Below, piece by piece: positions 46,176 to 64,000 of a DNA stretch of 64,000 bases. Origin of the DNA: Methylobacter sp. Lineage in GTDB: Bacteria > Pseudomonadota > Gammaproteobacteria > Methylococcales > Methylomonadaceae. The position numbers were made by a program, and so were the translations under genes. Position 1 is the first letter of the stretch, and each line of letters opens with the position of its first letter. The DNA lies in contig DATBQB010000017.1 in assembly GCA_036561025.1 (NCBI GenBank), positions 93,544-157,543 of the forward strand. Direction: 5' to 3'. The notes under the pieces were generated by a model. It worked only from the letters and a program-made list of their open reading frames with translations. It had not been told where the DNA came from and did no database searches.

Positions 46176-46260
46176 AACACCCCCTATGTTTAGTTAGTGA
46201 CTTTAATTTATGTCGATTATCACGAAAGCGCAACAATTAATTAAAATATAAGGTAATTTT

Positions 46261-47725: not shown

Positions 47726-47835
47726 CCTCTTGTCATGACTTTATTGCTAAGTATACAATAATAATTTGTTATGACATATTTAACTTGTAAAAGTTTTATA
47801 TAGCAAAAAATCGTCTGTTGTTATAAACTTCTATA

Positions 47836-47851
47836 TGAGCAAGTTTGCTCA
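47836..47851. promoter_or_regulatory. Candidate operator in the divergent regulator/globin promoter
   Basis: TGAGCAA-GT-TTGCTCA palindrome 35 bp upstream of the globin start. Confidence 0.4.
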
Positions 47852-47886
47852 AATAAGAATAATGACACTATACAATACTGGAGACA

Positions 47887-48282
47887 ATGATGAGCGATTC
47901 ACAAGAAACAAATTCAGGCCAATCACTATATGAAAAACTCGGCGGCGAAGCGGCTGTTAATGCTGCGGTAGATATTTTTTATCGTAAGGTATTGGCAGAT
48001 CACCGTATTAACCGTTTTTTCGACAATTCCGACATGGAAAAACAAGCCGCCAAACAAAAAGCCTTTTTGACGATGGCATTCGGCGGTCCAAATAACTATA
48101 ACGGTCAAGATATGCGTAATGCTCATGCACATCTGGTCAAAATGGGCTTAAATGCAAGTCATTTTGATGCTGTCATGGAGCACCTTGGCGCAACATTAAC
48201 CGAGTTAAATGTACCGGCAGAACTGATCGGCCAAGCTGCTGCTATTGCGGAAAGTACACGCAACGACGTATTGGGCAAATAA
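47887..48282 (+). CDS. glbN: Group I truncated hemoglobin (trHbN)
   Basis: SLYEKLGG, IFY (B9-B10), QKAFL..AFGGP..Y.G, proximal AH and HFDAV. Confidence 0.9.
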   Translation: MMSDSQETNSGQSLYEKLGGEAAVNAAVDIFYRKVLADHRINRFFDNSDMEKQAAKQKAFLTMAFGGPNNYNGQDMRNAHAHLVKMGLNASHFDAVMEHLGATLTELNVPAELIGQAAAIAESTRNDVLGK

Positions 48283-48294
48283 CTGAAATACCAG

Positions 48295-49281
48295 GTGGAG
48301 ACCATGCGAAGCATAACTATTGGCGAATCAACATTTTCCTGTCAACCGGATGAGACTGTATTGGAAACCCTGTTAAGGGAAAACATACAAGTACCTAATG
48401 GTTGTCGCCAAGGACTTTGCCAAGCCTGCCTAATGCGCAGTATTGACAACCCTCCACCTGTCTCAGCCCAAGTCGGCCTTAAAGATACCTTGCAAAAGCA
48501 GAACTACTTTCTGGCTTGCGTTTGCCATCCTGAGCAGGATATGACCGTTGCTTTGCCCAACCAGCAAGGCGCTTCAATTGAAGCTGTCGTTATCAAAAAA
48601 CAACTGTTAACGCCCGATATCGTACAGTTGGTTTTGGAATACCAAACCGAGTTTAATTTTTTCGCAGGTCAATTCGTTAATTTAAAACGGCCCGATGGCT
48701 TAATCCGCAGCTATTCGATTGCGAATATCCCGCATCATAAAAAGATCCTCGAGTTTCATATTCGTCGCTTACCGAACGGTCAGTTCAGCAGCTGGGTCTA
48801 TGATGAATTGGAGTTAGGCACTCAATTAACCATCTCGGAAGCGCAAGGTTCTTGCCATTATCTACCGGGACGTGCAGAACAGCCCTTATTGCTGATCGGA
48901 ACCGGCAGCGGTCTGGCACCGCTTCACGGCATTATTGCCGATGCTTTGGCGCAAGAACACTCAGGGCCTATTCACTTGTTCCATGGCAGCCGCGATCTTA
49001 ACGGTCTGTATTTCATTGACGAAATGCGTGAACTTGCTGAGGAGTTTGATAATTTTTATTACACTTCCTGTCTTTCCGGAGAAGAGATTGAATCGGATCA
49101 CGTTCGAGGCCGCGCTCATGACATTGCCTTATCATCCATTGAAACTCTGAGCGGATGGCGCGTTTTCCTGTGCGGACACCCGGAAATGGTCAATCAAACC
49201 AAAAGAATGGCATTTATGAAAGGCGCGTCTATGGCTGATATTTACGTAGATGCTTTCCATGTGGCGCAGGAAAAGAAATAA
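48295..49281 (+). CDS. 2Fe-2S ferredoxin-FAD/NAD(P)H oxidoreductase
   Basis: GCRQGLCQAC...LAC, RSYSIAN, GTGSGLAP and VFLCGHPEMV. Confidence 0.92.
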   Translation: METMRSITIGESTFSCQPDETVLETLLRENIQVPNGCRQGLCQACLMRSIDNPPPVSAQVGLKDTLQKQNYFLACVCHPEQDMTVALPNQQGASIEAVVIKKQLLTPDIVQLVLEYQTEFNFFAGQFVNLKRPDGLIRSYSIANIPHHKKILEFHIRRLPNGQFSSWVYDELELGTQLTISEAQGSCHYLPGRAEQPLLLIGTGSGLAPLHGIIADALAQEHSGPIHLFHGSRDLNGLYFIDEMRELAEEFDNFYYTSCLSGEEIESDHVRGRAHDIALSSIETLSGWRVFLCGHPEMVNQTKRMAFMKGASMADIYVDAFHVAQEKK

Positions 49282-49290
49282 ACAAACTTG

Positions 49291-49325
49291 TAAAAAAGGC
49301 AATGTTGCTTAGCGCAAGCAACATT
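49291..49325 (-). terminator. Hairpin with a minus-strand U-tract between the reductase and phosphorylase genes
   Basis: AATGTTGCTT-AGCGC-AAGCAACATT; on the minus strand it is followed by GCCTTTTTT. Confidence 0.45.
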
Positions 49326-49332
49326 CGCCCTT

Positions 49333-50157
49333 ATGAATAAATCAAACCCACCCCAAATTTTTATCTACGCCGCGCTGCCCTGCGAGGCCAAGCCGCTGGT
49401 CGAGCATTTCGGATTAAAAAAAGCGACTACGATCCAACCGTTCGCAGTTTACCTCAATCAGGACATCTGCCTGACGGTAACCGGACTGGGAAAAAGCGCG
49501 ATGGCTGCCGGAGTGGCTTACACACAGGCATTATTTGCTGAAACTGAGCACCCGGTTCTGCTTAATATCGGTATCGCCGGGCATAAAGACCATGCTGTGG
49601 GTGGCTTGTTTTTAATCGACAAAATCACCGATGCTGACAACCTGAAAAGCTATTATCCGCCGCTGGTTTTCACGCCGCCTTGCCCCACTGCAAATATCCA
49701 AACGGTATCAAGGCCGCAGCTTAACTATGACCGGCACACTCTTTGCGATATGGAAGCGTCTGCCTTTTATGAAACTGCGGTACGATTTTCGACAGGTGAA
49801 TTAATTCAATGCCTGAAAGTTATTTCGGATAATGAATCATTGCCGGCCGAAAACATCCAGCCCAAGCAGGTTGCTTCACTAATAGCCGCGCATGTCGAAA
49901 CGATTAATCTCTTATTGGCAGAGTTAAGCCGTCTGGCGAAGCTGATAACTGCGCCGGAACCCAAACTGTTTGAACAACTGACGCAGCGCTACCATTTTAC
50001 GGTCAGCGAACAGGGACAGCTAAAAAACCAGCTGTCCCGTTGGGCGGCCTTAACTCACAACCAAGCCCTTGAATTTGATGAAACCCGGCTGCATAAAGGC
50101 AAAGATGTTTTACTGTGGCTGGATCAACAAATCAGTAAAATCGAGTTTTGTTTGTGA
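49333..50157 (+). CDS. Purine/MTA nucleoside phosphorylase-superfamily protein
   Basis: ALPCEAKPL, TGLGK, LNIGIAG, CDMEASAF and LKVISDN. Confidence 0.7.
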   Translation: MNKSNPPQIFIYAALPCEAKPLVEHFGLKKATTIQPFAVYLNQDICLTVTGLGKSAMAAGVAYTQALFAETEHPVLLNIGIAGHKDHAVGGLFLIDKITDADNLKSYYPPLVFTPPCPTANIQTVSRPQLNYDRHTLCDMEASAFYETAVRFSTGELIQCLKVISDNESLPAENIQPKQVASLIAAHVETINLLLAELSRLAKLITAPEPKLFEQLTQRYHFTVSEQGQLKNQLSRWAALTHNQALEFDETRLHKGKDVLLWLDQQISKIEFCL

Positions 50158-50174
50158 TCGTGTTTTTCTAGCCG

Positions 50175-50537
50175 TTAAAAGAATATAAATGGCTGCTTAG
50201 TGACAGCAACTATCGCGATATAAACAAAGCAGGCAAGCGCACCGGCAAAAGCTTTCCAACGCAGGTCGCCCTGACTCTTGATAGCGACAATACCCAAACC
50301 GACATATGCCACCAGAGCTATCAGTTTAGCGATAATCCAGCCGTACTCGCCCGACAACCATGAACCTTGAAAAACCAGCGTAAAGCCGGTAATCAGCAAC
50401 AAACTGTTGATGATATGCGGCCCGATTTTTATCCATGTAAGCTCCATCATTTCCGGGCGCTTTTCCGCCAGATAAACCCTGCCGACAAAGCTGGAGATGG
50501 ACAATAAAATAAAGATCATGTGAAAAAACTTAATCAT
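50175..50537 (-). CDS. SirB2-family membrane protein
   Basis: Four TM segments, KIGPHIINSLLLITG and WIIAKL. Confidence 0.8.
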   Translation of the reverse strand: MIKFFHMIFILLSISSFVGRVYLAEKRPEMMELTWIKIGPHIINSLLLITGFTLVFQGSWLSGEYGWIIAKLIALVAYVGLGIVAIKSQGDLRWKAFAGALACFVYIAIVAVTKQPFIFF

Positions 50538-51502
50538 GCTGTGCTCCTAAGGTTAAAAATATTTTCATTACTCGATAAATAAGTCTGTTGCCGATGTTGC
50601 AGCAATATTCGCCGGAAAACCAACGGATCTTTTTGCTGGGTTATTTCGCCCGGACGAGGATAGCATTGATATTCCAGACGGGATAACCAAAACCGTAACG
50701 CCGCGGCTCTCAGCGCGATCGGCCAGTGCTGTTTTTCCAACGGTTCCAACGGCCTCAAGCTTTCATAAGCCGCTAACAATGCGGTAAATTTTTCGGCATT
50801 AACTATGCCGTTATCACAACACCAATCATTAGCCGTTATCGCAATATCTAACAGCAAAGTATCGGTGCAGGCGCTATTAAAATCCAACAACCCGCTGAGC
50901 TGATCGTTCACAAACAACACATTATCCCTGAACAGGTCGGCGTGAATAACGCCTCGCGGTACATTAACCGGGCTGTTTTTAGCTTGAAAAACCAGCTCAT
51001 CATTAACCAGCTCGCGATCCGTTGCCGATAAATGCGCGTTGATGTTATGAAACACCGTTTTGCACCAGCTTAAATCGTTACCGCTTTGTATCGGGAAAAC
51101 ATAGTCCTGCGTACAACGGTGCAAACTTGCCAACTGCAAGCCGATTTCCTGGCAATGTAAAACGGATGGCGATGCTACTGCTGCACCGGATAAACATTTA
51201 AATACCGCAGCCGGTTTGCCGTTAAGCTGGCGCAACGGATTGCCCTGCCGGTCGTTCTGAGGACTGGGACAAAGCAGATTGTTTTTGCCCAGATGCGACA
51301 ATAAGCTCAAAAAGTGCGGCAACTCATCGACAGTCAGCGACTCGAATAATGTTAAGACGTAACTGCCCTGCCGGGTAGTTACGAAATAATTGGTATTGTC
51401 TATGCCGTCCGTTATTCCTTCAAAACCGACGACTTCACCGAGGGTGTAAGCGCTAAAGAATTGATCGAGTTGCGGGCGTGTAATACGAGTAAATACGGAC
51501 AC
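50534..51502 (-). CDS. thrB: Homoserine kinase, type II (APH-like)
   Basis: Start GTG SVFTRI at 51502; GITDGIDNTNYF, GVIHADLFRDNVLF and ALRFWLSRL. Confidence 0.9.
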   Translation of the reverse strand: MSVFTRITRPQLDQFFSAYTLGEVVGFEGITDGIDNTNYFVTTRQGSYVLTLFESLTVDELPHFLSLLSHLGKNNLLCPSPQNDRQGNPLRQLNGKPAAVFKCLSGAAVASPSVLHCQEIGLQLASLHRCTQDYVFPIQSGNDLSWCKTVFHNINAHLSATDRELVNDELVFQAKNSPVNVPRGVIHADLFRDNVLFVNDQLSGLLDFNSACTDTLLLDIAITANDWCCDNGIVNAEKFTALLAAYESLRPLEPLEKQHWPIALRAAALRFWLSRLEYQCYPRPGEITQQKDPLVFRRILLQHRQQTYLSSNENIFNLRSTA

Positions 51503-51515
51503 TGACTTTAAGCGG

Positions 51516-51857
51516 CTACCATTCCAGCAAGTTCCACATTTGAACCCCGTTTTCTCTATCCAGATCGCTGCGGCGTACATCCATTTTGCCGTCGCCATTG
51601 GTATCGAGAAAATAATACGGAGGACCGACAGCCGGTACGACTTTTATCATATAAAGCCTGCCTCCGCGGCGGTATTCCTGAATGGTGTCTTTACCTTTAC
51701 GAATAATGGTGATGTCCGGCTCCATAGTTTCACCGCTTTGCACCGGCAAAGGCGGTTCCGGCGCTTCCGGCACAGCCTCAAGCTTTGGCGGTTTTTCATC
51801 GTCATCGGCGGCATAGACCGAAAAGGCGAGCAAACTCAGTAAGATAAAATGTCGCAT
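51516..51857 (-). CDS. DUF2782 exported protein
   Basis: Signal peptide; EPDITI...QEYRRGGRLYMIKVVP..GPPYY..D..GDG. Confidence 0.85.
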   Translation of the reverse strand: MRHFILLSLLAFSVYAADDDEKPPKLEAVPEAPEPPLPVQSGETMEPDITIIRKGKDTIQEYRRGGRLYMIKVVPAVGPPYYFLDTNGDGKMDVRRSDLDRENGVQMWNLLEW

Positions 51858-52218
51858 AAAGTGACTCTTTTAAAAATAGAAACTGCGGCTATCTTATTAC
51901 AGTTTTTACCGGCTTGCTTAACTAAAATAACCTGACAATTGATGCTATCAATGTCGGATTCCGTCTTACTGCTCCCGCTTAACCGGATTAACAAAACCCT
52001 ACTAACTTTCCTCCCCGACATGACTTCAGCCTTTTTTAAAAGGGCCCTGAGCCTGGTATTGCCGAAACTATGCGGTATTTTTCCGCTTTTCTTTCTCACT
52101 GAACAAGATATGGCTAACTGCGTTATTTAACTCAACAAAGTGCGGCATCTGACTCGCTATTATTAAAAATAAATCTCAATAAACAAGCGATAGTCAGCAT
52201 TGGCAAGGCTTTGGTGGC

Positions 52219-52235
52219 TTGGCACGCGCTTTGCG
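52219..52235 (+). promoter_or_regulatory. Sigma-54 (-24/-12) promoter
   Basis: TTGGCACGCGCTTTGCG matches TGGCAC-N5-TTGC with exact GG-N10-GC spacing, 38 bp upstream of the likely start. Confidence 0.75.
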
Positions 52236-52272
52236 ATGCGATATGGACATCCATAACTATCAAAATGAAAAA

Positions 52273-54504
52273 ATGAGAAAATACGTATTAATATTGGGAG
52301 CAAGTTATTTAGGCTGCGGAATTGCCGCAGAGCCAGTGACAACGGCCAGCAAACAAAACCAGAAGAAAGAGAGCGCGAAAAAGACAGAAGAACTTCTGGT
52401 TCTGGACATGCTGACTATCAAAGCGCAAAAGTCCAATATCGATCAGCCGTTCGGTTCCTATCTTGACCATTCCAAAATAGCTCTTGCCAGAACCGCTACT
52501 AGCGATACCGCCCAAATGTTTAAAGGCACTCCGGGCATGAGCTTTTCCGGTGGCGGCGGCATTTCCAGCCGCCCTATTATCCACGGCATGGCGGATGATC
52601 GTTTACGTGTTCAAGTCGATGGCATGAATCTGATTTCGGCTTGCGCTAATCATATGAATCCTGCGCTGTCTTATGTCGCTCCATCCAGCGTGATGAGCGC
52701 TCAAGTGCTTGCCGGAATTACCCCGGTCAGCATGGGCGGCGACAGTATCGGCGGCACTATCCGCGTTAATTCAGCCGATCCCGAATTTGCCGAAGCCGGC
52801 GCGGCGCCGTTGTTAAAAGGGCAAGCCTCAACCTTTTACCGCACCAACGGCGACGCGCGAGGAGGCAATATTTCAGCCTCGATAGCAAACGAATATGCCG
52901 AGCTTAAGTACACGGGCTCAACAGTGCAGTCGCGTAATTACAAAGCCGGCGGAAATTTCACCACCTTAAATACCAAAAACGGCAATGATGTGGTGGCCTC
53001 TTCGGCCTATAAATCCGAAAACCAATCACTATCGCTGGCCTTGCGCAACGACGACCATCTTGCCGTTATCAAAGTCGGCCAGCAAAACATCCCTTATCAA
53101 GCCTTCCCCAACGTGCGGATGGACATGACCGGCGACGACAGCTGGTTTGCCAATATCTTTACTAAAAGCCAGTTTCAGTGGGGAAATATCGAAACTCGCG
53201 CTTATCATGAAGATGCCCGGCACAAGATGAATTTCCTGGAAGATAAAATGACTACGCCAACCCGTAGCATGCCGATGGATACGCATGGCGTTAACCAAGG
53301 CCTGTCGGTAAAAGCCAATATCGATATAACCGACAAGCATTTGCTTACCGTGGGCAGCGAGTATCAGCGTTATCGTTTAGACGACTGGTGGGATCCGATC
53401 GGCCCCAACGCGATGATAATGATGCAAGGGCCGGGGCCATTCTGGAACATCAACTCAGGAAAGCGCGACCGCGTCGATCTTTTTGCCGAATGGGAAGGCC
53501 GCTGGAACCGGCAATGGCTGACTCAACTCGGCGCACGCGTCGGCGCAGTGGAAATGAATGCCGGCGATGTATTGGACTACGGCGTAATCACACCCGAAGC
53601 GCGAATTGTTAACAGCCAGAACAAGAAGCAAACCGACATTAATATCGATTGGACCGCGCTAACCCGCTATACCCCGAACGACATGCAGACTTACGAATTA
53701 GGCGCTGCCAGAAAAACCCGTTCTCCTAATCTTTACGAGCGCTTTGCCTGGTCTCGCGGACGTACTATGGGAATGATGACCATGCCTATGTCTATGTTCA
53801 TGAACAATTGGGTGGGTGACGGTAACGGCTATGTCGGCGACATAAACCTTAAGCCGGAAGTCGCGCACACTCTTAGCGCCACCGCCAATTGGCATGACGC
53901 CAATCAGGAAGACTGGGAAACCAAAATCACACCCTTTTACACCCACGTCGAAAACTATATCGACGCGAAACTCTGCCAACCGGCCAATGGCGTGACATGC
54001 GCCAGTCCATCAAGCGGTTTTAATTTACTGCAACTGGCTAACTTCGATGCACACCTGTTCGGCGTCGATGTTTCCGGGTCCAAGCGCTTATTCGAAGACG
54101 CCAAATACGGCAGCTTCTTTGGTAAAACGGTTTTAAATTATGTCCGAGGACAAAACAACGACACCGGCGGCAACCTGTATCAGCAAATGCCATTCAATGC
54201 GACGGTAGCGCTCGAACATCAGCGCGGCGGCTGGTCCAATACCATCGAAACGCAAATAGTCGCGCCTAAAACAGACGTACAAGCCGTCCGATTGGAACCT
54301 AAAACCGCAGGCTACGCATTGCTTAACCTGCGCAGCAGTTATACCTGGAAGCATTTACGGATCGACGGCGGCATAGACAATCTTCTTGATAAGAATTATG
54401 CCCTTCCTTTAGGCGGCACTTATATAGGAGAGGTGAGCAGGCCTGGAACTGCGGTTCCTGGTATGGGGCGTTCTTTCAATGTTGGCATGACGGTAAATTA
54501 TTAA
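52273..54504 (+). CDS. TonB-dependent receptor, OprC-like copper receptor
   Basis: Plug with CANHM (CxxxM), barrel HKM (HxM), Met-rich loops, NLLDKNY and a C-terminal GRSFNVGMTVNY strand. Start MRKY at 52273 because the ORF-track start lies inside the promoter. Confidence 0.85.
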   Translation: MRKYVLILGASYLGCGIAAEPVTTASKQNQKKESAKKTEELLVLDMLTIKAQKSNIDQPFGSYLDHSKIALARTATSDTAQMFKGTPGMSFSGGGGISSRPIIHGMADDRLRVQVDGMNLISACANHMNPALSYVAPSSVMSAQVLAGITPVSMGGDSIGGTIRVNSADPEFAEAGAAPLLKGQASTFYRTNGDARGGNISASIANEYAELKYTGSTVQSRNYKAGGNFTTLNTKNGNDVVASSAYKSENQSLSLALRNDDHLAVIKVGQQNIPYQAFPNVRMDMTGDDSWFANIFTKSQFQWGNIETRAYHEDARHKMNFLEDKMTTPTRSMPMDTHGVNQGLSVKANIDITDKHLLTVGSEYQRYRLDDWWDPIGPNAMIMMQGPGPFWNINSGKRDRVDLFAEWEGRWNRQWLTQLGARVGAVEMNAGDVLDYGVITPEARIVNSQNKKQTDINIDWTALTRYTPNDMQTYELGAARKTRSPNLYERFAWSRGRTMGMMTMPMSMFMNNWVGDGNGYVGDINLKPEVAHTLSATANWHDANQEDWETKITPFYTHVENYIDAKLCQPANGVTCASPSSGFNLLQLANFDAHLFGVDVSGSKRLFEDAKYGSFFGKTVLNYVRGQNNDTGGNLYQQMPFNATVALEHQRGGWSNTIETQIVAPKTDVQAVRLEPKTAGYALLNLRSSYTWKHLRIDGGIDNLLDKNYALPLGGTYIGEVSRPGTAVPGMGRSFNVGMTVNY

Positions 54505-54678
54505 TAGCCGCCATTCTGAGGCACAAGGATAAAACCGACCCGGTCTCCGCCGTACCTCTTCAGTGACAAAATGCCAATTGGCGGGTGTAGCCTTTAAACT
54601 ATACTCGTCAATTGGCTTCAACTTCATGACCTCTGCGTGTCTTAGCATACATCAGGGTCTTCCCCTTGGTAATGCTAG

Positions 54679-54740
54679 TTCTCAAGCTCCAGCTTGGGAA
54701 TTCAATGAAGGAAGCTCTAGCTTTCCGTCTCGCGAAGCTA
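54679..54740. repeat. Truncated short palindromic repeat (TTCYCAAGCT-CC-AGCTTGGGAA ... GGAAGCTCTAGC)
   Basis: 10-bp arms with one mismatch at 54679-54700, then a second AGCT..AGCT unit; resembles interspersed repeats I recall from related genomes (not verified). Confidence 0.45.
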
Positions 54741-54890
54741 CAACAAAGTAAATAAACATTAGCTGTTGATTTTAATCGGCTAAACAAGCACCTTTGCCTA
54801 ATCTCAGAATGCCCTCACCGCAATTAACCCTTTTGAAAACTCACCGAATCTATTGCCAAATAATCATGAAATTATTTTTCGTGGACAAGC

Positions 54891-54965
54891 ATGAGTTATA
54901 AAATCACTTGTTATAACTCATATTTACCAATATTATGAGCTATAGACAAAGGATATATAACTCAT
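54891..54965. promoter_or_regulatory. Twin palindromic operators upstream of fic
   Basis: ATGAGTTATA-N11-TATAACTCAT (54891-54921) and ATGAGCTATA-N11-TATAACTCAT (54935-54965); the second overlaps the start codon. Confidence 0.75.
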
Positions 54966-56067
54966 GACGTGGAACTGGCAACAGCCTGACTGGCCTAATT
55001 TTAGCTACGACAAATCCCTGCTTGATGATTTCGAGAAACAATTGCTGCTGGGCGCCGGTTTTGCGTTCGGTGCATTCAAACACCTTAATGAAGAGGACAA
55101 GCAGCAACTAACCGTCGAGCTCATCAGCAACGAAGCGTTAAAAACATCGGAAATCGAAGGCGAATATCTTGATCGCGACAGCCTTCAGTCGTCTATTCGC
55201 CGTCAATTCGGTTTGACCGCTGACAGCCGCAAAATTCCTCCTGCCGAGCAAGGCATCGCGGAAATGATGGTTGATGTATATCGAGGCTTTGAAGCTCCAC
55301 TCTCCCACGCTATGCTGTTCAAATGGCATAAAATGCTGACCACTGGCCGTCGCGATTTAAACGACATAGGCGGATACCGTACACATAGCGAACCGATGCA
55401 AATCGTATCCGGCGCTATCTATGCGCCCAAAGTACATTTTGAAGCGCCGCCGTCATCGCAAATGCTACCGGAAATGGAGCGGTTCATTAACTGGTTTAAC
55501 GCCACCGCATCGAACGGAAAAACGCCGTTGCCAGCTTTATTGCGCGCCGCTATTGCCCATCTTTATTTTGTCAGCATCCATCCGTTCGAAGACGGCAATG
55601 GCCGAATCGGACGGGCAATTGCCGAAAAAGCGCTCGCTCAATGCCTAGGCCAACCCACGCTAATTGCCATTGCCTACACAATTGAACGCAACAAAAAAGC
55701 CTATTACAGCGCACTTGAACAGGCCAACAAGCAGAACGAGATAACAGCTTGGCTAATCTATTTTGCGGAAACAATCATAAACGCCCAAAGCTATACCGCA
55801 ACGTGGATCGATTTTTTGATCAAGAAAGCTAAATTCTATGACCGCTTACGCGGGCAAATGAATCCGCGCCAGGAGAAAGCTTTAGCGAGAATGTTCCGCG
55901 AAGGCCCGGACGGATTCGTTGGAGGATTGAGTGCGGAAAAATACATCGGCATCACCGGCGCGCCCAGGGCTACTGCTACCCGCGATTTGCAGGATTTGGT
56001 AAGCAAAGAGGCTTTAGTTCGGCATGGCGAGCGTAAGCACACCCGATATTCTCTTAATCTCGAATGA
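54964..56067 (+). CDS. Class II Fic-domain protein (DUF4172-type N-terminus, C-terminal wHTH)
   Basis: HPFEDGNGRIGR catalytic motif, N-terminal inhibitory TSEIEG [(S/T)xxxE(G/N)], WNWQQPDWPNF start and C-terminal RATATRDLQDLV. Confidence 0.92.
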   Translation: MTWNWQQPDWPNFSYDKSLLDDFEKQLLLGAGFAFGAFKHLNEEDKQQLTVELISNEALKTSEIEGEYLDRDSLQSSIRRQFGLTADSRKIPPAEQGIAEMMVDVYRGFEAPLSHAMLFKWHKMLTTGRRDLNDIGGYRTHSEPMQIVSGAIYAPKVHFEAPPSSQMLPEMERFINWFNATASNGKTPLPALLRAAIAHLYFVSIHPFEDGNGRIGRAIAEKALAQCLGQPTLIAIAYTIERNKKAYYSALEQANKQNEITAWLIYFAETIINAQSYTATWIDFLIKKAKFYDRLRGQMNPRQEKALARMFREGPDGFVGGLSAEKYIGITGAPRATATRDLQDLVSKEALVRHGERKHTRYSLNLE

Positions 56068-56310
56068 GCTTATAAAAATAAGCGTTTATGATGCTGACTA
56101 AGTAAACGCCCTTGGCGTTATTGCCTGACTCGCGGATTCTGCATGACGCTATCTATTAAATATGCAAAGAAGAGACGTTGATTCCAGCCGTTAGCCATTT
56201 ACATCAAAAGACAATATACTGGAAAGATCGATATAGTCTTGATTTGCTCGAGCTGACTGCTCCAGCCTTTTTGTCTATGCCCACTCAGTAACATATCCAA
56301 GGATTCAAGC

Positions 56311-59300
56311 ATGTCTAAACTCGCTCTGCGACTTATTGAAGAAAATATGCAAACCCGTGCGCCCTTTCTGGATCTTGGAAATTGCGAACTTACCGAAGTA
56401 CCCAAGGAAATTGCGGCCTTGGTTTGGCTGGAGCAGTTGTCGTTTTCCAGAACTCGAACAGAATGGGACGGCACAAATTGGCATAGTCAGCTTACAACAA
56501 ATGTCGGTCCTGCAAATAACATCGAGCGCCTTATAAGACGAGGTTCGACATTCAATCCTTTTCATAATTTAAAGAACTTAAAACAGCTTTGGCTGAACGG
56601 AGATTCATCCAGACAATTTTCCCTAAGCAGTATTGCTCCTTTAGATGGACTGGTAAATCTTGAGGGACTTGATGTTTCAGCTACTCGAATATCTGGCTTA
56701 TTGAGCTTGGCAAGAATGACGAATCTTCGTACTTTGGATATTTCAAAAACACGAGTCACTAAATTGGACCATTTAGCTAGGCTTGAAAAACTCCAAGTAC
56801 TCAAAGCTCAGCAAACTCAAGTATCCAATTTGCGTCCGTTAGTTAGATTAGTAAATTTACAACAACTTAATTTTAACTTTACTGAAATCAAAGACTTGAC
56901 ACCAATATATAGACTAACAAATCTACAAATCATTAAATTTAAGATGACGCGTATTGCTGAGCTAGCTCCATTAGCTGGACTGTTTAAGCTGCAAGAAATT
57001 GATCTTAGTCGAACAAAGGTAATGGATTTATCACCATTAGCTGGATTGACTAGTCTGCAATGGCTTGATGTATCACAGACACCTGTTATCAACTTATCTC
57101 CATTGGCTGATTTATATGAACTGAAAGAACTTCAGGCTTCTCATACCAAAGTATCAGATTTATCTGGATTAGTTGGACTCTCAAACTTACGTCGACTTGA
57201 CCTTTCAGAAACACAAATAGCTGATTTAGCGCCTTTGTTGCCGCTGATAACACATGGCGTTCCAGTGAAAAGCAGTCGGTTATGGGGTGCGATGTGGTGG
57301 TTTGTGGATGAGGAAATTATCAACATTAGTGGCTGTCCTCTTACTAATCCACCGCTCGAAACAGCACAACAAGGCAATGAAGCCATCCTCCGCTATTTTG
57401 ACGAACAGCGTCGTGTCGGCACAATCAAAGTTCGGGAGGCAAAACTACTCATAGTCGGTCAAGGCAAAGCAGGTAAAACAACACTCAAGAAGAAACTACA
57501 AGATCAAAATGCCGAGATGCCAGAACTCGACGATACCACGAGAGGCATTGAAATTACCCGCCTGGACGAGAGAATGCCGCAGACTGGAGAACCTTTGCGC
57601 ATTAACGTCTGGGATTTTGGCGGGCAAGACATCCAACATTATGCTCATCAATTTTTTTTAACAGGCAATTCGCTTTATGCCCTTGTTACTAACGAGCGCA
57701 TCCAAGACTCAGTACATCTGCCTTATTGGCTTAACATCATCGAGATGCTAGGTAAAAAAAGTCCCATCCTCTTGATTCAGAACAAAGATGGCGGGCATTG
57801 CCAACCTTTGCGAGATGAGGCTGCGATTCGGGCGCGATTCAGCAATATTCACAACCGTATGTTTCAAACTGACTTTTCAAAAGCTGCCACAGAACCTGAG
57901 TTCGCCGATTTGCGCAGGGAAATCGTACACCAAGCGGCCCAACTACCCCATGTCGAACGCGAATATTTGGCTTCTTTTGCGGAACTGCGCGGCAAGTTGG
58001 AAAACAAAGCCGATCACGGCATCCATTATCTGAATTGGAAAGATTTTCTTACTATGATGCCGGAATTGTCCGAAGATCTGATGCGCGACTACGCCAATGC
58101 ACTGACTTTTCTGGGAGTTTGTCAATATTTCCCAGATGACGCGCACTTATCTCAGTTTGTGTTTCTACGCTCGAAATGGATCATAGACGCTTTGTTCGCG
58201 CTGTTGCTACATCCGTCTTTAGAGGAGAAACGTGGTCATTTCAACGAGAACGATACTTTCGATATTTGGAAAGGTCTTGAATATCAGGGAATGCACGCGC
58301 TATTGGTGCGGATGATGGAAGAATTTGAGCTATGCTACCGGGTTGAAGGTGACGGGCATAACTATATCTTGCCGCAACGTTTGCCTAGCGAAAAGCTTAC
58401 TTACGGCTGGGACGAACTCGGTGATACACCTGTGGAGTATAAATACAAATTTATGCCCAAGGGTATTCTTACTCGTTTGATTTGTCGTCTACATCCGCGT
58501 ATCGAAACCAACCCGGAGCGCGGGCAGCGAGTATGGTGTGACGCAGTGATTTTCGCATTGCCCGACGGCAAAGGCAGGGTGTTTGCGCGCGAAGTTTACA
58601 GTGAGAATACCATCGAACTACGTGCAACAGGGGACAAGCGAGCCGAAATGCTGAATGAGGTCATCCGGAAAATGGACGACATCAACCACGATGCCAAATA
58701 TGACAACCTGCAAGTGGAGAAACTGGTGCCTTGTCCGTGCGAAGAATGTGTACAGGCAGAATCGCCGGGTTTCCATGATTACGATGTCCTGCAAAAACGC
58801 ATTGAGAAAGATAAAGACACATCGGAATGCAAGAAGAGCGGAGAGGACGTGTCGATAAGTGAGATATTCGGCAAGTCTGGTGTGAAGCGACCGGAATCGA
58901 GCCAGAGAGATAGATTTAATAAAAAGTTACGGGGGGATATTATGCCAACGACATCATTGAAAGTTTTTATTTCCTATTCTCATGCTCAGCGAGATTACTT
59001 TCCGATTTTCAAGAAAGATCTCAATGAATACACTAGGCTTTCAGGGTTAGACATTCAGATATTCGATGACAATGAAATCCCTATCGGCTCGTTCTGGGAC
59101 GAATTACTCCAAAACAGGGTTGCTAATTGCGACGTTATGATTCTTCTGGTCAGCCAAGAGTTCATGAATTCGCAGTATATCCAGGAAAAGGAGTTCGGCG
59201 CAGCAATAGAGCGGTTGAAAAATGGGCACGAGTTACTGGTTGCGCCGGTTTATTTTGCACCTTGTAAGTTTAACTCGGAGGAGGAACTGGCTCGGCTACA

Positions 59301-59496
59301 GTTTTTCAAACCCCATGGAGAGGATTTTGATGAATCAAAAAAAGCTGAAAACTTTTCATATATTGATTTAGTGAAATTCCGACAAAACGACGGGCAGCCC
59401 ATCCCTAACTCTAACCGCCAGCATTACATGATGGCATTCATGAAAAAGCTGGAGCCGGAATTGCGGAAGCTGGCAGATAGCATTAATTCACAATGA
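56311..59496 (+). CDS. Roco protein: LRR - Roc GTPase - COR - Cys-rich segment - TIR
   Basis: 22-aa LRRs (e.g. LAGLTSLQWLDVSQTPVINLSP), G1 GQGKAGKT, switch I TTRGIEI, G3 WDFGGQ, COR-like region (KWIIDALF, MEEFELCY, FMPKGILTRLI), CPCEEC, and TIR KVFISYSH...LLVSQEF..S.YI.EKEF. Confidence 0.9.
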   Translation: MSKLALRLIEENMQTRAPFLDLGNCELTEVPKEIAALVWLEQLSFSRTRTEWDGTNWHSQLTTNVGPANNIERLIRRGSTFNPFHNLKNLKQLWLNGDSSRQFSLSSIAPLDGLVNLEGLDVSATRISGLLSLARMTNLRTLDISKTRVTKLDHLARLEKLQVLKAQQTQVSNLRPLVRLVNLQQLNFNFTEIKDLTPIYRLTNLQIIKFKMTRIAELAPLAGLFKLQEIDLSRTKVMDLSPLAGLTSLQWLDVSQTPVINLSPLADLYELKELQASHTKVSDLSGLVGLSNLRRLDLSETQIADLAPLLPLITHGVPVKSSRLWGAMWWFVDEEIINISGCPLTNPPLETAQQGNEAILRYFDEQRRVGTIKVREAKLLIVGQGKAGKTTLKKKLQDQNAEMPELDDTTRGIEITRLDERMPQTGEPLRINVWDFGGQDIQHYAHQFFLTGNSLYALVTNERIQDSVHLPYWLNIIEMLGKKSPILLIQNKDGGHCQPLRDEAAIRARFSNIHNRMFQTDFSKAATEPEFADLRREIVHQAAQLPHVEREYLASFAELRGKLENKADHGIHYLNWKDFLTMMPELSEDLMRDYANALTFLGVCQYFPDDAHLSQFVFLRSKWIIDALFALLLHPSLEEKRGHFNENDTFDIWKGLEYQGMHALLVRMMEEFELCYRVEGDGHNYILPQRLPSEKLTYGWDELGDTPVEYKYKFMPKGILTRLICRLHPRIETNPERGQRVWCDAVIFALPDGKGRVFAREVYSENTIELRATGDKRAEMLNEVIRKMDDINHDAKYDNLQVEKLVPCPCEECVQAESPGFHDYDVLQKRIEKDKDTSECKKSGEDVSISEIFGKSGVKRPESSQRDRFNKKLRGDIMPTTSLKVFISYSHAQRDYFPIFKKDLNEYTRLSGLDIQIFDDNEIPIGSFWDELLQNRVANCDVMILLVSQEFMNSQYIQEKEFGAAIERLKNGHELLVAPVYFAPCKFNSEEELARLQFFKPHGEDFDESKKAENFSYIDLVKFRQNDGQPIPNSNRQHYMMAFMKKLEPELRKLADSINSQ

Positions 59497-59514
59497 ACTT
59501 TGAATCAATAACTC

Positions 59515-59602
59515 GGTAGGATGGGTAAAGGCTGTAACCGAAACTCATCATAATCGTCAATCACCAATGTGACAGGTTTCGCGTTGCTCTACCCATCCTA
59601 CC
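59515..59602. repeat. GTAG-type REP doublet (REPIN-like)
   Basis: GGTAGGATGGGTA ... TACCCATCCTACC are perfect 13-bp terminal inverted repeats, between convergent genes. Confidence 0.75.
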
Positions 59603-59636
59603 AAGCTGCTGATGACGAATTAATTACCTCCCTTTT

Positions 59637-60044
59637 TTAGATCACCCAATCTTCCAACTTTAACCTGTCAATACGTTCAAACTCACGCACGTTATGCGTG
59701 ACAAGCGTAGCGTCACGAGAAAGTGCATGGCAGGCAATCCAAAGGTCATTAGCGCCTATCGGGGTACCTGCTTCTTTTAACCGGGTAAATTGCGCGGCGT
59801 AGTGCTCGCATAAGCTATGGTTGGTATTGTAGTGGACGGGGATCAGCTGGGTAAGCTGATCAAGCTGGAGCAATACCTGGGCCTTGCGCGTGCTACGCTC
59901 GGCACCTTTGAGTAGCTCGGCATAGGTGATAAAAGACATGCACAATACGTCATCTTTATCCAGGGCATTGATAGTTTCGGCGACGGATGGTGGTTTGTTT
60001 TTGATCAGATAAATCAGAATGTTGGTATCCAGCATATAGATCAT
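59637..60044 (-). CDS. vapC: PIN-domain toxin VapC
   Basis: YMLDTNILIY, ELLKGA, IGANDLWIACHA and LVTHNVREF. Confidence 0.93.
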   Translation of the reverse strand: MIYMLDTNILIYLIKNKPPSVAETINALDKDDVLCMSFITYAELLKGAERSTRKAQVLLQLDQLTQLIPVHYNTNHSLCEHYAAQFTRLKEAGTPIGANDLWIACHALSRDATLVTHNVREFERIDRLKLEDWVI

Positions 60045-60295
60045 AAAGACTCGCGATCCTGCATGGCGGGCTGTTGCCGGTAGTTTTGCTCAAGCTGATT
60101 AGCAAAATCTTCATCAAAGGCATTGAGCGCTGCCAATACGGCTGCACCACGGTCAACGGGTAAAGGGTGAATAACCAGATCGCCATTCGCGTTGCGGCTG
60201 ATTTCAACCTGGGTCGCATCAATGCGAAATTCTTGCGGAATCCGCACTGCCTGGCTGTTGCCGTTTTTAAAGATGCGTGTGGTTAAGGTTGACAT
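60041..60295 (-). CDS. vapB: AbrB/SpoVT-type antitoxin VapB
   Basis: IFKNGNSQAVRIPQEFR; ATGA overlap with vapC. Confidence 0.92.
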   Translation of the reverse strand: MSTLTTRIFKNGNSQAVRIPQEFRIDATQVEISRNANGDLVIHPLPVDRGAAVLAALNAFDEDFANQLEQNYRQQPAMQDRESL

Positions 60296-60420
60296 AGACT
60301 GCCCTCATGGTGTGTACATTGATGTGTGTATCATATTTTTAGGTGGATAAACTTGCAAATTATTATTGCGCGAATCCACCGGGGCAACGGAGTAGAGACG
60401 CGATGCCTCCAGATTTTAAT

Positions 60421-61122
60421 TTACTCCCCACCCACCAACCGATACCCCACGCCCGCCTCAGTCAACAAGTAACGCGGCTGGGCCGGATCGGCTTCAAGCT
60501 TCCTACGCAGTTGTCCCATGTAAATCCGCACATAATGGCCGTGCTCCACGTAGGCAGGCCCCCAAACGTCCAGCAACAACTGCCGGTGCGTCAGCACCTT
60601 GCCCGCATGACGGATCAACACCGTCAGCAGCCGGTATTCGATCGGGGTCAGATGAATTTCCTGTTCGCCGATATGCACACTGCGACGGGATAAATCAACC
60701 TGTAAATCGCCAACGCTAAACAGCGTTTCGACGCTGTCTCCTGCAAGCTGTGCGGCGTGGCGTAGCGATACGCGGATGCGCGCCAGCAGTTCGCCTATGC
60801 TGAACGGTTTGGTCAGGTAATCGTCCGCTCCGGCATCCAGCGCGGCAATCTTGTTGCTTTCCTGGCTTCGGGCCGACAGTACGATGATCGGCACTGCGGA
60901 CCATTCGCGAACCTTGCGGATCACCGCTATGCCGTCCATACCCGGCAAGCCCAGGTCGAGGATGACCAACTCCGGCTTGCGGGTACCGATTTCCACTATG
61001 CCCCGTTCGCCGGTTCCCGCCTCAATCACCTGAAATCCCTGCACGCTCAGGCTGGTGCGCAAAAAACGGCAGATTTGCGGATCATCCTCGACGACCACAA
61101 TGACCGGTTTGGCGCTATTCAT
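60421..61122 (-). CDS. kdpE: Response regulator KdpE
   Basis: VEDD, ILDLGLP, GADDYLTKPF, HLTPIEY, GKVLTHRQLL..VWG and LRRKLEADPAQPRY. Confidence 0.93.
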   Translation of the reverse strand: MNSAKPVIVVVEDDPQICRFLRTSLSVQGFQVIEAGTGERGIVEIGTRKPELVILDLGLPGMDGIAVIRKVREWSAVPIIVLSARSQESNKIAALDAGADDYLTKPFSIGELLARIRVSLRHAAQLAGDSVETLFSVGDLQVDLSRRSVHIGEQEIHLTPIEYRLLTVLIRHAGKVLTHRQLLLDVWGPAYVEHGHYVRIYMGQLRRKLEADPAQPRYLLTEAGVGYRLVGGE

Positions 61123-63859
61123 CTTGCAACTGCTCCGCTGCCAGTTGCGGCGGCGCTTCGTCTACCGGCAGCAGGAAAAAGAATTGCGCTCCGCCGCCTT
61201 GCCGGTTAGCGGCGCCGATAACGCCACCATGCGCCATAATGATGGCCTTGCAAATGGCCAAGCCCAGACCGACGCCGCTTTGCGTGCCTTCCCGATGTAC
61301 CCGGTAGAATTTATCGAACAGTTTTTCCTCTTCTCCCGGCGGTATGCCGGGACCGCGATCCGCTACGGTTACCTTTAGCATATGGGCGGAGAGTTCGGCG
61401 ATGATGTCGATGGGACTACCCGGCGGCGTATATTTGCAGGCATTTTCCAACAGATTGACCAGCACCTGTTCGATCAGCACCGCATCGACACGCACCAAAC
61501 AGAGCTCATCCGGCAGTTTGGCGTTGACGGCGCGCCCTTTAAGCCGCTTGCGCATTCGCGTCAACGTTCCGCCGATGATTTCGTCCAATAGATACCATTG
61601 CCGGTTCAGCGATGCCTGTCCTGCATCCAGGCGAGCCATATCCAGAATATTATTGGTCAGGTTCGACATCCGTAGCGCTTCGTCATAGATGGTCAGGCTC
61701 AACTCTTGCCGATCCTGCGGGGCAAGCTGGGCGTCTTCTTCCACCAGCGTACTGGCCGCGCCGACGATGGATGCCAACGGTGTGCGTAAATCATGGGAAA
61801 TCGCGCTGAGCAAGGAATTACGCAAGCTCTCGGATTCCATGCGTAATTGAGTCTGTTGCGCCTCATCGGCGAAACGCACCCGTTCAACGGTTTGGGCAAT
61901 CTGGCTGATAAAGGTATCCAACAGCCGGCGCTGTTCGGGTAGAAACACCCGGCGCAGATTGACGGCGCGCAACACCAGCACACCGATCACGCCGCGGAAA
62001 CCGGACATAGGAAAAAACACTGCGTCGGCTCCGGGTAAGGTATCGGTGCCTTGTCCGGCTATCTGGCCGTGGTCAAAAACCCACTGCGCCACGCTGAGAT
62101 CGCAATTACGCAGGGATTCCGGGACCGGCGGATCTGAAGGATAAACTATCCGACCGTCGTCGTCTGGAAACAGCAAGACGCTGGCCCCGCCGAACTCATC
62201 CTGAATATGTCGCGCGGCGATTCTGGCAGTTTCCGCTACGGTACGACTGGCCGCCAGATCTTCACTCAATGCGTAAAGTACATTAGCGCGCCGCTCCCGA
62301 TGTGAGGCGACCTTCGCCTGAGAACGCATATTGCTGGTCAGATGGCTGATAATCAACCCCACCAATAGCATAATGAGGAACGTCACCAAATACTGGACAT
62401 CCGCGACCGCAAAGGTATGAACCGGATTTACGAACAGAAAGTCGAACGCGGCAACGCTCAGCACCGAAGTCAAAACAGAGGCTTCGCGACCGAAGCGGGC
62501 GGCCATAAAAACCACGCCCAACAAATAAACCATGACCAGATTAGCTAATTCGAATTTCCCGGACATTACCCAGGCAACTAAACTCGTGCAGCCTGTCATA
62601 GCTACCGCCCAACCCCAATTTAACCAACGCCGTTTGGCGCGACCCCAGGGATAATTGGGACGAAGCACTTTTACCCCCGCCATTGCTTTAGGCGCTTTTT
62701 TTTCTAAAGTATCTTCGCCACGCGGGCTGCCCAGCAAATAGACGTTGATATTATGCGCTTCGGTGATCAGAGTATCGACGACCGAGCCCAGCAACCAGCG
62801 CTTCCAACCACGGCGACGGGGTTTGCCCAACACGATTTTAGTGACATTGCGGCTTTTGGCAAAACCCAGGATTTCTTTACTCATATCGGGGCCTGACAAA
62901 GTCACCGTTTCTGCGCCCAACTGTTCGGCAAAGCGCAATATCCGCAGCACCTCATCGCGACGTTCGGCAGGCAAGCGCTGCAGCTCCGGCGTTTCCACGT
63001 AAGCCACGATCCAATGTGCATGTAGACTGGCAGCAAGCCGCTTCGCGGCACGCACCAGCCGCTCGGCGATAGCATTGGCGCCTATGCAGACCAATATCCG
63101 ATCGCCGACCGGCCAAACATCGCTGATCGCATGGTCGTCCCGGTAGTCTTGCATTTGCGCGTCGACCCGGTCGGCAGTCAGGCGTAAGGACAATTCCCGT
63201 AAGGCAATCAGATTGCCTTTGCGGAAGAAATTGCGCATTGCCCGTTCCGCTTGTTGCGGAACATAAACCTTACCTTCCTTGAGCCGCATTAATAACTCAT
63301 CAGGCGGCAAATCAATCAATTCGACCTCATCCGCCAGCTCGAATACCGTATCCGGCACAGTTTCCCTAACCTGTACCCCGGTTACCTGGCTGACATCGTC
63401 GTTGAGGCTTTCCAAATGCTGGACGTTGAGCGTGCTGTAAACATCGATACCGGCATTCAGCAATTCTTCTACATCCTGCCAGCGCTTAGGATGACGGCAA
63501 CCGATGGCGTTGCTGTGCGCCAATTCGTCCACCAAGACCAGAGACGGGCGGCGTTTCAGGGTACCGTCCAGATCGAATTCGCGCAGCACCGTACCACGGT
63601 GTTTGACCAGCTTGGGCGGCAGCACATCCAGGCCTTGTAATACCGCGACGGTTTCTTGCCGGTCATGGGTTTCCACCAGTCCGACCACCACGTCGATGCC
63701 TTCAGCCCGTTTGGCTTTGGCGGCAAGTAACATAGCGTAGGTTTTTCCAACACCCGCTGCCGCGCCGAAAAATACTTTGAGTCGTCCGCGTTGTCGCTGG
63801 TTTTCCTCGCGTTCTACGCGAGCAAGTAGCGCATCAGGGTCTGGTCTGGTATCGATCAT
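61115..63859 (-). CDS. kdpD: Sensor histidine kinase KdpD
   Basis: RGRLKVFFGAAAGVGKTYAML, DELAHSN, KRWQDV, Usp domain, four TM helices, GAF, SHDLRTPL and HATPase G-boxes. Confidence 0.96.
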   Translation of the reverse strand: MIDTRPDPDALLARVEREENQRQRGRLKVFFGAAAGVGKTYAMLLAAKAKRAEGIDVVVGLVETHDRQETVAVLQGLDVLPPKLVKHRGTVLREFDLDGTLKRRPSLVLVDELAHSNAIGCRHPKRWQDVEELLNAGIDVYSTLNVQHLESLNDDVSQVTGVQVRETVPDTVFELADEVELIDLPPDELLMRLKEGKVYVPQQAERAMRNFFRKGNLIALRELSLRLTADRVDAQMQDYRDDHAISDVWPVGDRILVCIGANAIAERLVRAAKRLAASLHAHWIVAYVETPELQRLPAERRDEVLRILRFAEQLGAETVTLSGPDMSKEILGFAKSRNVTKIVLGKPRRRGWKRWLLGSVVDTLITEAHNINVYLLGSPRGEDTLEKKAPKAMAGVKVLRPNYPWGRAKRRWLNWGWAVAMTGCTSLVAWVMSGKFELANLVMVYLLGVVFMAARFGREASVLTSVLSVAAFDFLFVNPVHTFAVADVQYLVTFLIMLLVGLIISHLTSNMRSQAKVASHRERRANVLYALSEDLAASRTVAETARIAARHIQDEFGGASVLLFPDDDGRIVYPSDPPVPESLRNCDLSVAQWVFDHGQIAGQGTDTLPGADAVFFPMSGFRGVIGVLVLRAVNLRRVFLPEQRRLLDTFISQIAQTVERVRFADEAQQTQLRMESESLRNSLLSAISHDLRTPLASIVGAASTLVEEDAQLAPQDRQELSLTIYDEALRMSNLTNNILDMARLDAGQASLNRQWYLLDEIIGGTLTRMRKRLKGRAVNAKLPDELCLVRVDAVLIEQVLVNLLENACKYTPPGSPIDIIAELSAHMLKVTVADRGPGIPPGEEEKLFDKFYRVHREGTQSGVGLGLAICKAIIMAHGGVIGAANRQGGGAQFFFLLPVDEAPPQLAAEQLQDE

Positions 63860-64000
63860 AATTGAGTCCGGTCGTTGCTAAAAATAATGTGTAGATCATT
63901 ATTTCGTTAGTTCTCAAGCTAAAAATGTGGGCATTCGGTTTGTAAGCCTGTTCTGAGCCTTGTCGAAGGGCTCCCCTGTTTCGTAAGGCGTCCTCTACCT

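Follow-up and report, generated by a model that had tools for sequence, protein, structure and literature searches.

The DNA analyzed here, hereafter the window, is a stretch of 64,000 nucleotides from Methylobacter sp. (assembly GCA_036561025.1, contig DATBQB010000017.1, positions 93,544 to 157,543 of the forward strand), and positions given without the name of another sequence are those of the window. Among its genes is one for a single-chain protein in which leucine-rich repeats (LRRs), a Roc nucleotide-binding domain, the two halves of a COR domain and a TIR domain follow one another, and which we refer to as Roco-TIR. Comparison with homologues pointed to a strongly conserved Roc-COR core joined to LRRs that appear to evolve rapidly and to a TIR module that appears to have been exchanged between lineages. 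We consider it somewhat probable that this protein is an abortive-infection sensor.

Domain organization of Roco-TIR

The Pfam search identified four stretches of LRR_4 (E 5.6e-28), Roc at residues 378-492 (E 1e-18), COR-A at residues 555-690 (E 8e-23), COR-B at residues 708-852 (E 3e-21) and TIR_2 at residues 885-1006 (E 1.3e-12; 48.8 bits versus a cut-off of 28). Roc is followed directly by COR-A and COR-B in one chain, all above the Pfam cut-offs, which places the protein in the Roco family. A full-length AlphaFold2 (AF2) model built on 43 homologues had a mean predicted local distance difference test score (pLDDT) of 84.3, with values of 91-97 in the LRR solenoid. Its only long low-confidence stretches were residues 989-1014 and residues 864-880, the latter with pLDDT below 50 and within a weakly conserved linker. 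The top Foldseek match of this model was 6hlu_A (E 3e-50), the LRR-Roc-COR structure of CtRoco from Chlorobaculum (Chlorobium) tepidum, followed by LRRK1 and LRRK2, and the RocCOR or COR fragments 3dpt, 3dpu and 4wnr were matched with template modelling (TM) scores by target of 0.79-0.83 (0.79 for 3dpu). When searched with phmmer, the full protein matched CtRoco over residues 159-810 (E 7e-81), and the Roc domain matched MbRoco2 (4wnr, E 2.5e-20) as well as CtRoco (E 1e-19). The features of the gene and its surroundings are listed in Table 1.

Table 1. Position, strand and supporting evidence of the features of Roco-TIR and of its surroundings in the window.
Feature	Position	Strand	Evidence
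Whole gene, LRR-Roc-COR-TIR protein (1061 residues + stop)	56311-59496	+	Open reading frame (ORF) list, translation, Pfam, AF2, Foldseek
N-cap and LRR solenoid, residues 1-312, putative ligand sensor	56311-57246	+	Pfam LRR_4/LRR_14, repeat register
Ten regular 22-residue LRR units, residues 92-311	56584-57243	+	Repeat register
LRR-to-Roc hinge, residues 313-375	57247-57435	+	Homologue alignment
Roc nucleotide-binding domain, residues 376-530	57436-57900	+	Pfam, phmmer, motif conservation
G1 of Roc	57457-57480	+	Alignment
Non-canonical G4, N491-K-D-G494	57781-57792	+	Alignment to CtRoco
COR-A, residues 531-695	57901-58395	+	Pfam, Foldseek
COR-B, residues 696-852, dimerization half of COR in CtRoco	58396-58866	+	Pfam; PMC6337361
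CxCxxC...C (C808, C810, C813, C840) at the COR-B end, candidate Zn(Cys)4 site	58732-58830	+	Conservation
Flexible linker, residues 853-880	58867-58950	+	Low pLDDT, low conservation
TIR, residues 881-1010	58951-59340	+	Pfam TIR_2, PADLOC, 7UXR alignment
Candidate catalytic Glu961 codon	59191-59193	+	7UXR alignment, conservation
C-terminal tail with long helix at residues 1034-1060	59341-59493	+	AF2 helix
DUF4172-Fic protein, SoFic-like, upstream neighbour	54964-56067	+	Pfam; PADLOC SoFic
VapC (PIN), downstream neighbour	59637-60044	-	Pfam
VapB (MazE/AbrB-type), downstream neighbour	60041-60295	-	Pfam
Segment without DNA match in 30 congeners (Roco-TIR and VapBC)	56066-60434	.	Genus-wide DNA search, flank mapping
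Variable hotspot between conserved block and kdpE	about 51965-60414		Flank mapping

An initial annotation, made from the letters of the sequence, had described about ten LRRs of 22 residues, a Roc domain with intact G1 to G3 motifs and a non-canonical G4, a COR domain and a TIR domain with a Glu at the catalytic position, and had proposed that profile searches and AlphaFold be used to check them. All of these assignments were recovered. One assignment needs correcting, the Cys-rich linker of the same annotation: its CxCxxC...C cysteines are conserved but lie in COR-B, and the real linker (residues 853-880) begins after them.

The start codon of Roco-TIR appears sound, because an AGGA lies about 10 nt 5' of the ATG and the N-terminus agrees with the homologue consensus. 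A further in-frame ATG was observed at the boundary between linker and TIR (Met878, 58942-58944) and is common only to the closest homologue; a conserved internal start at this codon is unlikely, since the TIR_A members L004 and L007 have no Met there. Scanning positions 54700-60500 for promoters and terminators gave the same counts as in shuffled sequence.

No segment of transmembrane quality and no signal peptide was found in Roco-TIR, and its N-terminus is not hydrophobic; the highest 19-residue Kyte-Doolittle mean (1.44) falls within COR-A. The lack of both elements indicates that the protein is cytoplasmic. It also bears on a reading in which Roco-TIR would be a secreted host-interaction factor, with internalin-like LRRs and a TIR that mimics Toll-like receptor (TLR)/MyD88 signalling. 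The LRR type does resemble that of internalins, and some pathogens possess TIR proteins by which TLR signalling in the host is disturbed. Nevertheless, Roc-COR is an intracellular module, the internalin models score far under their cut-offs, and the nearest homologues derive from free-living methanotrophs, Saprospiraceae and cyanobacteria. We regard this reading as extremely improbable and rejected it on the missing signal peptide and transmembrane segment.

The comparison with NLR/TLR-type receptors that had been drawn initially stands in part. A logic of sensor, switch and TIR effector fits the data, but the TLR topology of extracellular LRRs, a transmembrane helix and a cytoplasmic TIR is not that of Roco-TIR, nor is there a STAND ATPase: NACHT, NB-ARC and AAA_16 were absent from the Pfam scan of the protein, in which the switch is Roc-COR.

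The putative LRR sensor

The ten regular LRR units, which begin at residues 92, 114 and so on up to 290, are preceded by one or two irregular N-terminal units. Their likeness to internalins appears to be one of repeat type only, given that the InlA model of NCBIfam matched with an E-value of 8e-32 and yet remained far under its cut-off. The hinge that joins the LRRs to Roc keeps a conserved CPLTNPP...QGNEAILRYF motif in the homologue alignment.

Identity in the LRRs was 73% to the closest homologue (P0002) and 39-50% in remoter members of the same Roc-COR clade, and many of the LRR gaps among relatives were whole multiples of 22 residues (44, 66, 88, 110). Ratios of nonsynonymous to synonymous substitution rates (dN/dS), computed by the Nei-Gojobori method for the single pair of the window gene and P0002, were 0.37 in the LRRs, 0.41 in the hinge, 0.018 in Roc, 0.03-0.05 in COR and 0.13 in the TIR. 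These values suggest that evolution in the LRRs is 10-20 times as fast as in Roc-COR. Synonymous divergence is very uneven along the gene: against the homologue at L002:8001-11198, dS was 0.43 for the LRRs, 1.06 for Roc, 1.19 for the TIR and 1.83 for the tail, pointing tentatively to a recombinant (mosaic) history as opposed to uniform divergence.

The Roc domain and the end of COR-B

In Roc, the motifs G1 (GQGKAGKT, residues 383-390), G2 (T410) and G3 (DFGGQ, residues 435-439) were invariant or nearly so across the 43 homologues. The G4 motif reads NKDG (residues 491-494), and the HMMER alignment puts Gly494 at the Asp position of the NKID of CtRoco, so that this motif departs from the canonical guanine-specific form N/TKxD. 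Since the guanine-reading Asp is missing, the nucleotide specificity of the domain is uncertain. The close clade keeps NKDG or NMDG, other clades carry NEKGG or NEKQD, and NKID was seen in one of the 43 sequences and NKRD in one further row of the alignment. Retention of NKDG within the clade, together with the very strong purifying selection on Roc indicated by its dN/dS, argues that the motif is not a product of decay.

The four cysteines near the end of COR-B are each at least 90% conserved in the TIR-bearing homologues, and equally so in 24 Roco relatives, most of which have no TIR. Because they lie inside the Pfam match to COR-B and are conserved where the TIR is missing, they are better regarded as characteristic of the end of COR-B in this group of bacterial Roco proteins than as part of a TIR-specific linker. 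When COR-B with the Cys segment was searched against the PDB with phmmer, only chance-level matches were returned. In the AF2 model this region (pLDDT 85-93) forms a strand, a turn and a helix, after which comes a short strand. A Zn(Cys)4 site is a plausible candidate there.

A less conventional view of the switch, which we put forward tentatively and consider distinctly unlikely, is that in this clade it is not an ordinary GTPase and binds another nucleotide, or GTP weakly, so that the protein would guard the nucleotide pool in addition to sensing a ligand. Loss of the bound nucleotide would then allow COR-B dimers to form, a Zn(Cys)4 knuckle adjacent to the tether of the TIR would stabilize them, and the hydrolysis of nicotinamide adenine dinucleotide (NAD+) by the TIR would be triggered. 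A protein of this kind would be a simple bacterial model of a Roc-COR cycle that gates an enzymatic output, an open question for LRRK2.

The TIR module and its exchange between lineages

Four residues of the TIR (F886, S888, D920 and S948) were invariant among the homologues, and E961 was conserved in at least 90% of them. In the alignment to the bacterial TIR 7UXR (E 4e-4), which involves a one-residue insertion in the query, E961 coincides with the second Glu of W-T-E-Y-E-L, a position that we take to be the canonical WxxxE catalytic position of TIR NAD+ hydrolases (NADases). Enzymes of this type require self-association. The ThsB-type TIR model of PADLOC also matched the domain (E 8e-11). 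A model of the TIR alone, built with AlphaFold from six sequences, reached a pLDDT of 67 and left the 45 residues 984-1028 unmodelled, and its Foldseek matches were to TIR domains (B. cereus TIR, TLR1, RPS4, ThsB, SARM1 and SPARTA) but weak, with E-values of about 1e-3 and TM scores of 0.4-0.5. For these reasons, that is the pLDDT and a fold search consistent with a TIR but weak, no TIR subtype was assigned from this model.

A total of 383 matches came from the protein search. The closest of them, with 83-55% identity, came from Methylococcales methanotrophs of the genera Methylumidiphilus, Methylosarcina, Methylosoma and Methylovulum, and next came Saprospiraceae/Haliscomenobacter, Methylomonas and Nostoc. 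Plasmids yielded only distant Roco proteins, mainly from Cyanobacteria and Bacteroidota, with about 23-32% identity for the matches containing Roc-COR.

Identities along the protein differed sharply between the core and the C-terminal part. Relative to P0002, Roc, COR-A and COR-B were 93-95% identical (Roc 95%) and the TIR 71%. The Methylomonas proteins shared 26-44% identity in Roc-COR and 66-68% in the TIR, and the Methylosoma protein P0016 shared about 77% in Roc-COR and just 27% in the TIR. When the TIR type of Roco-TIR was placed on the Roc-COR tree, well-supported branches forced at least six changes, in a quick tree search in which some long branches were flagged. The C-terminal tail follows the TIR module in its variation among Roc-COR lineages, and other close relatives terminate in EAD11 or EAD1 adaptor domains or in other TIR types. 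These patterns indicate that the TIR and the C-terminal tail form an exchangeable module that appears to have been swapped between Roc-COR lineages. As a separate case, the metagenomic protein P0042 (988 residues, 63% identity in Roc-COR) has an N-terminal TIR and a DUF4062 in place of the LRRs, with two TIR_2 stretches by Pfam, and is a sensor-less or differently sensed variant.

A prokaryotic conflict system built on an AP-GTPase (equivalent to Roc) and COR has been predicted computationally by Kaur, Iyer, Burroughs and Aravind (eLife 2021, PMC8195603). The system as they describe it begins with LRRs that evolve rapidly and ends in one of at least 24 C-terminal effector domains, TIR being one, and its domain order of LRR, GTPase, COR and effector TIR is identical to that of Roco-TIR. 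The same pairing of a rapid sensor with a variable effector was found here, in the LRR identity of 73% against about 95% in Roc-COR, in the indels of whole repeat units, in the relatives ending in EAD11 or EAD1, and in the incongruence of TIR type with the Roc-COR tree. The source data of their Figure 6 contain the string 'cor+tir' 581 times, and two of the entries match homologues of Roco-TIR by descriptors other than sequence: Methylosarcina fibrata WP_083918254.1 (954 residues) matches P0014, which is 60% identical to Roco-TIR, by organism and length, and Methylomonas koyamae OAI12102.1 (A1507_19115, 1065 residues) matches P0050 by organism, length and locus tag.

The LRR-Roc-COR-TIR architecture was already catalogued in 2021 as that of a predicted bacterial immune protein. 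The catalogue is computational and contains no experiments, and Roco-TIR is a further member of the family. Prior description had been named in the initial annotation as something that would count against its proposal, and a catalogue check had been suggested. The outcome is divided: the system of Kaur et al. covers the architecture as a prediction, but PADLOC-DB v2.0.0 holds no model for the whole protein, only TIR-domain models that match residues 871-988, and no experimental paper was found in the literature searched. The NKDG form of G4, the four cysteines of COR-B, the swapping of TIR modules and the hotspot context are not discussed in the passages of Kaur et al. that were consulted.

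Genomic context

When positions 46000-64000 of the window were searched at the DNA level against 30 congeneric genomes, the segment that holds Roco-TIR and the VapBC pair, which is convergent to it, had no match, and a protein search found no ortholog of Roco-TIR in 24 congeneric species. The site itself varies among congeners. In two genomes (G044 and G019) the conserved block on the left, which ends near 51962, directly abuts kdpE (from about 60425), and in G010 the site holds a TonB receptor, then 274 bp, then kdpE. In two others (G015 and G018) the Fic gene of the window is present, with a Kup K+ transporter after it, and G020 carries two toxin-antitoxin pairs and a Fic remnant. Because the segment 56066-60434 is unmatched and the site is differently filled or empty in congeners, we consider Roco-TIR to be cargo of a strain-variable hotspot. 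The GC content rises from about 0.45 to 0.55-0.59 at kdpE/kdpD (60400-64000), though this part is conserved flank with 83-90% identity in most congeners.

No gene was common to the neighbourhoods of five homologues, nor to these and the window, which suggests that Roco-TIR is a single-gene unit and that Fic is not a conserved partner. Toxin-antitoxin genes lie close by in three of five loci (the window, L002 and L007), and one homologue adjoins a HigBA-like pair. In the locus L007:7338-14059, from a metagenome-assembled genome of Proteobacteria, the homologue P0008 stands among trp genes, with trpE and trpG upstream, trpD just downstream and trpC further on, and with MazE, HicB-like and ParE genes interspersed; this trp operon seems to have been colonized by defence and toxin-antitoxin cargo.

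The adjacency of the Fic and Roco genes on the same strand, and the fact that small GTPases are known AMPylation targets of Fic enzymes, could suggest a three-gene system of Fic (AMPylase), Roco-TIR and VapBC, in which Fic would modify the Roc GTPase or regulate the downstream gene. The distribution of the genes speaks against it. None of the five homologues examined has Fic beside it, and the same Fic gene sits at this site, with 85-87% DNA identity and a Kup transporter after it, in three congeners without a Roco gene (G015, G018 and G006). Moreover, Fic matches the stand-alone SoFic model of PADLOC (E 4.6e-42, profile positions 49-346 of 361), and a 243-bp spacer separates it from the Roco gene. 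The three genes as one system were rejected on the absence of Fic at the homologues and its presence in congeners that lack the Roco gene, and we hold such a system to be very unlikely.

Proposed function

A sensor, switch and TIR-effector logic fits Roco-TIR, because the gene lies in a hotspot beside a SoFic-like gene and VapBC, its LRRs are hypervariable, its effector is swappable and the Glu of the TIR is conserved. On balance, we lean towards Roco-TIR being a single-chain cytoplasmic abortive-infection sensor directed against phages or other invading elements, which would act by depleting NAD+. In the mechanism that we propose, the LRR solenoid would bind a molecule derived from or modified by the invader, and binding would alter which nucleotide state Roc-COR is in and how it self-associates through COR-B. 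With a tether of about 28 residues between them and COR-B, the TIRs would thereby be brought together into composite active sites, which would hydrolyse NAD+ and stop the growth of the infected cell.

The states of the switch can be proposed by analogy. CtRoco is mainly a monomer with GTP and a dimer when nucleotide-free, and the C-terminal half of its COR makes the dimer (PMC6337361). The resting form of Roco-TIR may thus be a GTP-bound monomer and the active form a COR-B-mediated dimer or higher oligomer. As the TIR hangs directly on the dimerizing COR-B, it is in the GTP-free state, and not with GTP bound, that the TIRs would be expected to come close together.

Several points weigh against an NAD+-depleting immune sensor. 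In PADLOC, the TIR is matched best by ThsB models, i.e., TIRs that produce a signal and do not deplete NAD+, and the TIR-only model is of mediocre quality, with its unmodelled segment and weak fold matches. With its non-canonical G4, Roc could bind nucleotide weakly or in an altered way. The dN/dS of the LRRs is below 1, so that it indicates rapid evolution and does not demonstrate positive selection, and it comes from one pair in which dS is near-saturated in some domains. The defence-island argument is one of guilt by association, Fic being resident at the site in congeners without the Roco gene. Finally, the literature searched, outside which most subscription journals lie, held no experimental datum on any LRR-Roc-COR-TIR protein, which is not proof of absence.

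The first of these points leads to a Thoeris-like alternative, in which the TIR would make a cyclic ADP-ribose (ADPR)-type signal for an effector encoded elsewhere in the genome and NAD+ would not be depleted. The TIR of Roco-TIR is, like that of ThsB, of the bacterial TIR_2/ThsB type, and the genome encodes three SIR2_2 proteins that are not linked to it. In PADLOC, these proteins are variously matched to Dsr1, to just the SIR2 portion of ThsA, or to no model at all, and their genes lie at least 75 kb away or on other contigs. Beside Roco-TIR there is no ThsA-type partner; its neighbours are Fic and VapBC, and none is conserved in the five other loci. Its flanks of 243 bp and 140 bp contain no small membrane ORF, and across the six loci Roco-TIR moves as a single unit with no conserved partner along. 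A signal-producing TIR is therefore unlikely in our judgement. The Dsr1-like SIR2 gene on the same contig (G000:C17 about 72811-75003; L022:3-2193, minus strand) appears to be split into two adjacent ORFs, one of 300 residues that covers profile positions 8-296 and one of at least 432 residues that covers positions 337-730, and is maybe frameshifted or a two-gene form.

A role outside immunity would make Roco-TIR a housekeeping-type switch for stress, development or kin discrimination, or for a regulated form of cell death, with the TIR as an adaptor or an NAD-linked regulator. What CtRoco and other prokaryotic Roco proteins do biologically is unknown (PMC6337361), Kaur et al. tie such systems to multicellular or aggregating bacteria, and scaffolding is possible for TIR domains. 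However, the gene was not found in the 24 congeneric species and occupies a strain-variable hotspot, and both hypervariable LRRs and the swapping of effectors are hallmarks of conflict genes and not of conserved signalling. The Glu at the catalytic position is conserved as well. We judge a non-immune role to be improbable, and favour the NAD+-depleting sensor.

Relation to other Roco and TIR proteins

CtRoco (PDB 6HLU, 3DPU and 8R4B) shares the LRR-Roc-COR core with Roco-TIR and provides the biochemical model of monomer-dimer cycling through COR-B. It differs in its canonical NKID G4 and in an overall identity of about 25%, and the searches made gave no match of the TIR to CtRoco. The eukaryotic proteins LRRK1/LRRK2 and DAPK1 likewise have an LRR-Roc-COR core that folds in the same way (E 1e-24 to 5e-31 by Foldseek) and an enzymatic output after COR, but this output is a kinase, and the proteins are much larger, carry ANK, ARM or WD40 additions and are about 16-18% identical.

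On the side of cell death, the gasdermin-activating protease of Runella is a Roc-COR-CHAT protein (Johnson et al., bioRxiv 10.1101/2021.06.07.447441), so that for one Roc-COR protein a link to cell death in an experimentally investigated system already exists. Both proteins combine a bacterial Roc-COR with a C-terminal enzymatic effector; they differ in that the CHAT protease acts on the product of a separate gasdermin gene, whereas Roco-TIR has a TIR and no conserved partner.

Being compact, soluble and encoded by a single gene, with a predicted output that is easily assayed (loss of NAD+), Roco-TIR would allow the 2021 prediction of a Roc-COR immune switch to be tested. It would also serve as a read-out for how the nucleotide and dimer cycle of Roc-COR controls a fused enzyme, which bears on LRRK2, where a kinase is gated by the same module. 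Comparisons are offered by the conserved G4 variant, the four cysteines at the COR-B end, the short flexible TIR tether and the natural swaps of LRR units and TIR modules.

The TIR-STAND proteins (bSEFIR and Avs/bNACHT-type proteins with a TIR) follow the same logic of a repeat sensor, an NTPase switch and a TIR effector. Their switch is a STAND ATPase, in contrast to the Ras-like Roc GTPase and COR of Roco-TIR, in which sensor, switch and effector are arranged in this order from the N- to the C-terminus. A protein of this class was observed on the same contig (G000:C17:216648-219458, minus strand, equal to L021:2649-5459). It has 936 residues and a TIR/SEFIR-AAA_16 (STAND)-TPR organization, matches the bSEFIR model of PADLOC (E 2.7e-44) and adjoins an IS200-like transposase gene, so that the genome holds both STAND-switched and Roc-switched TIR sensors.

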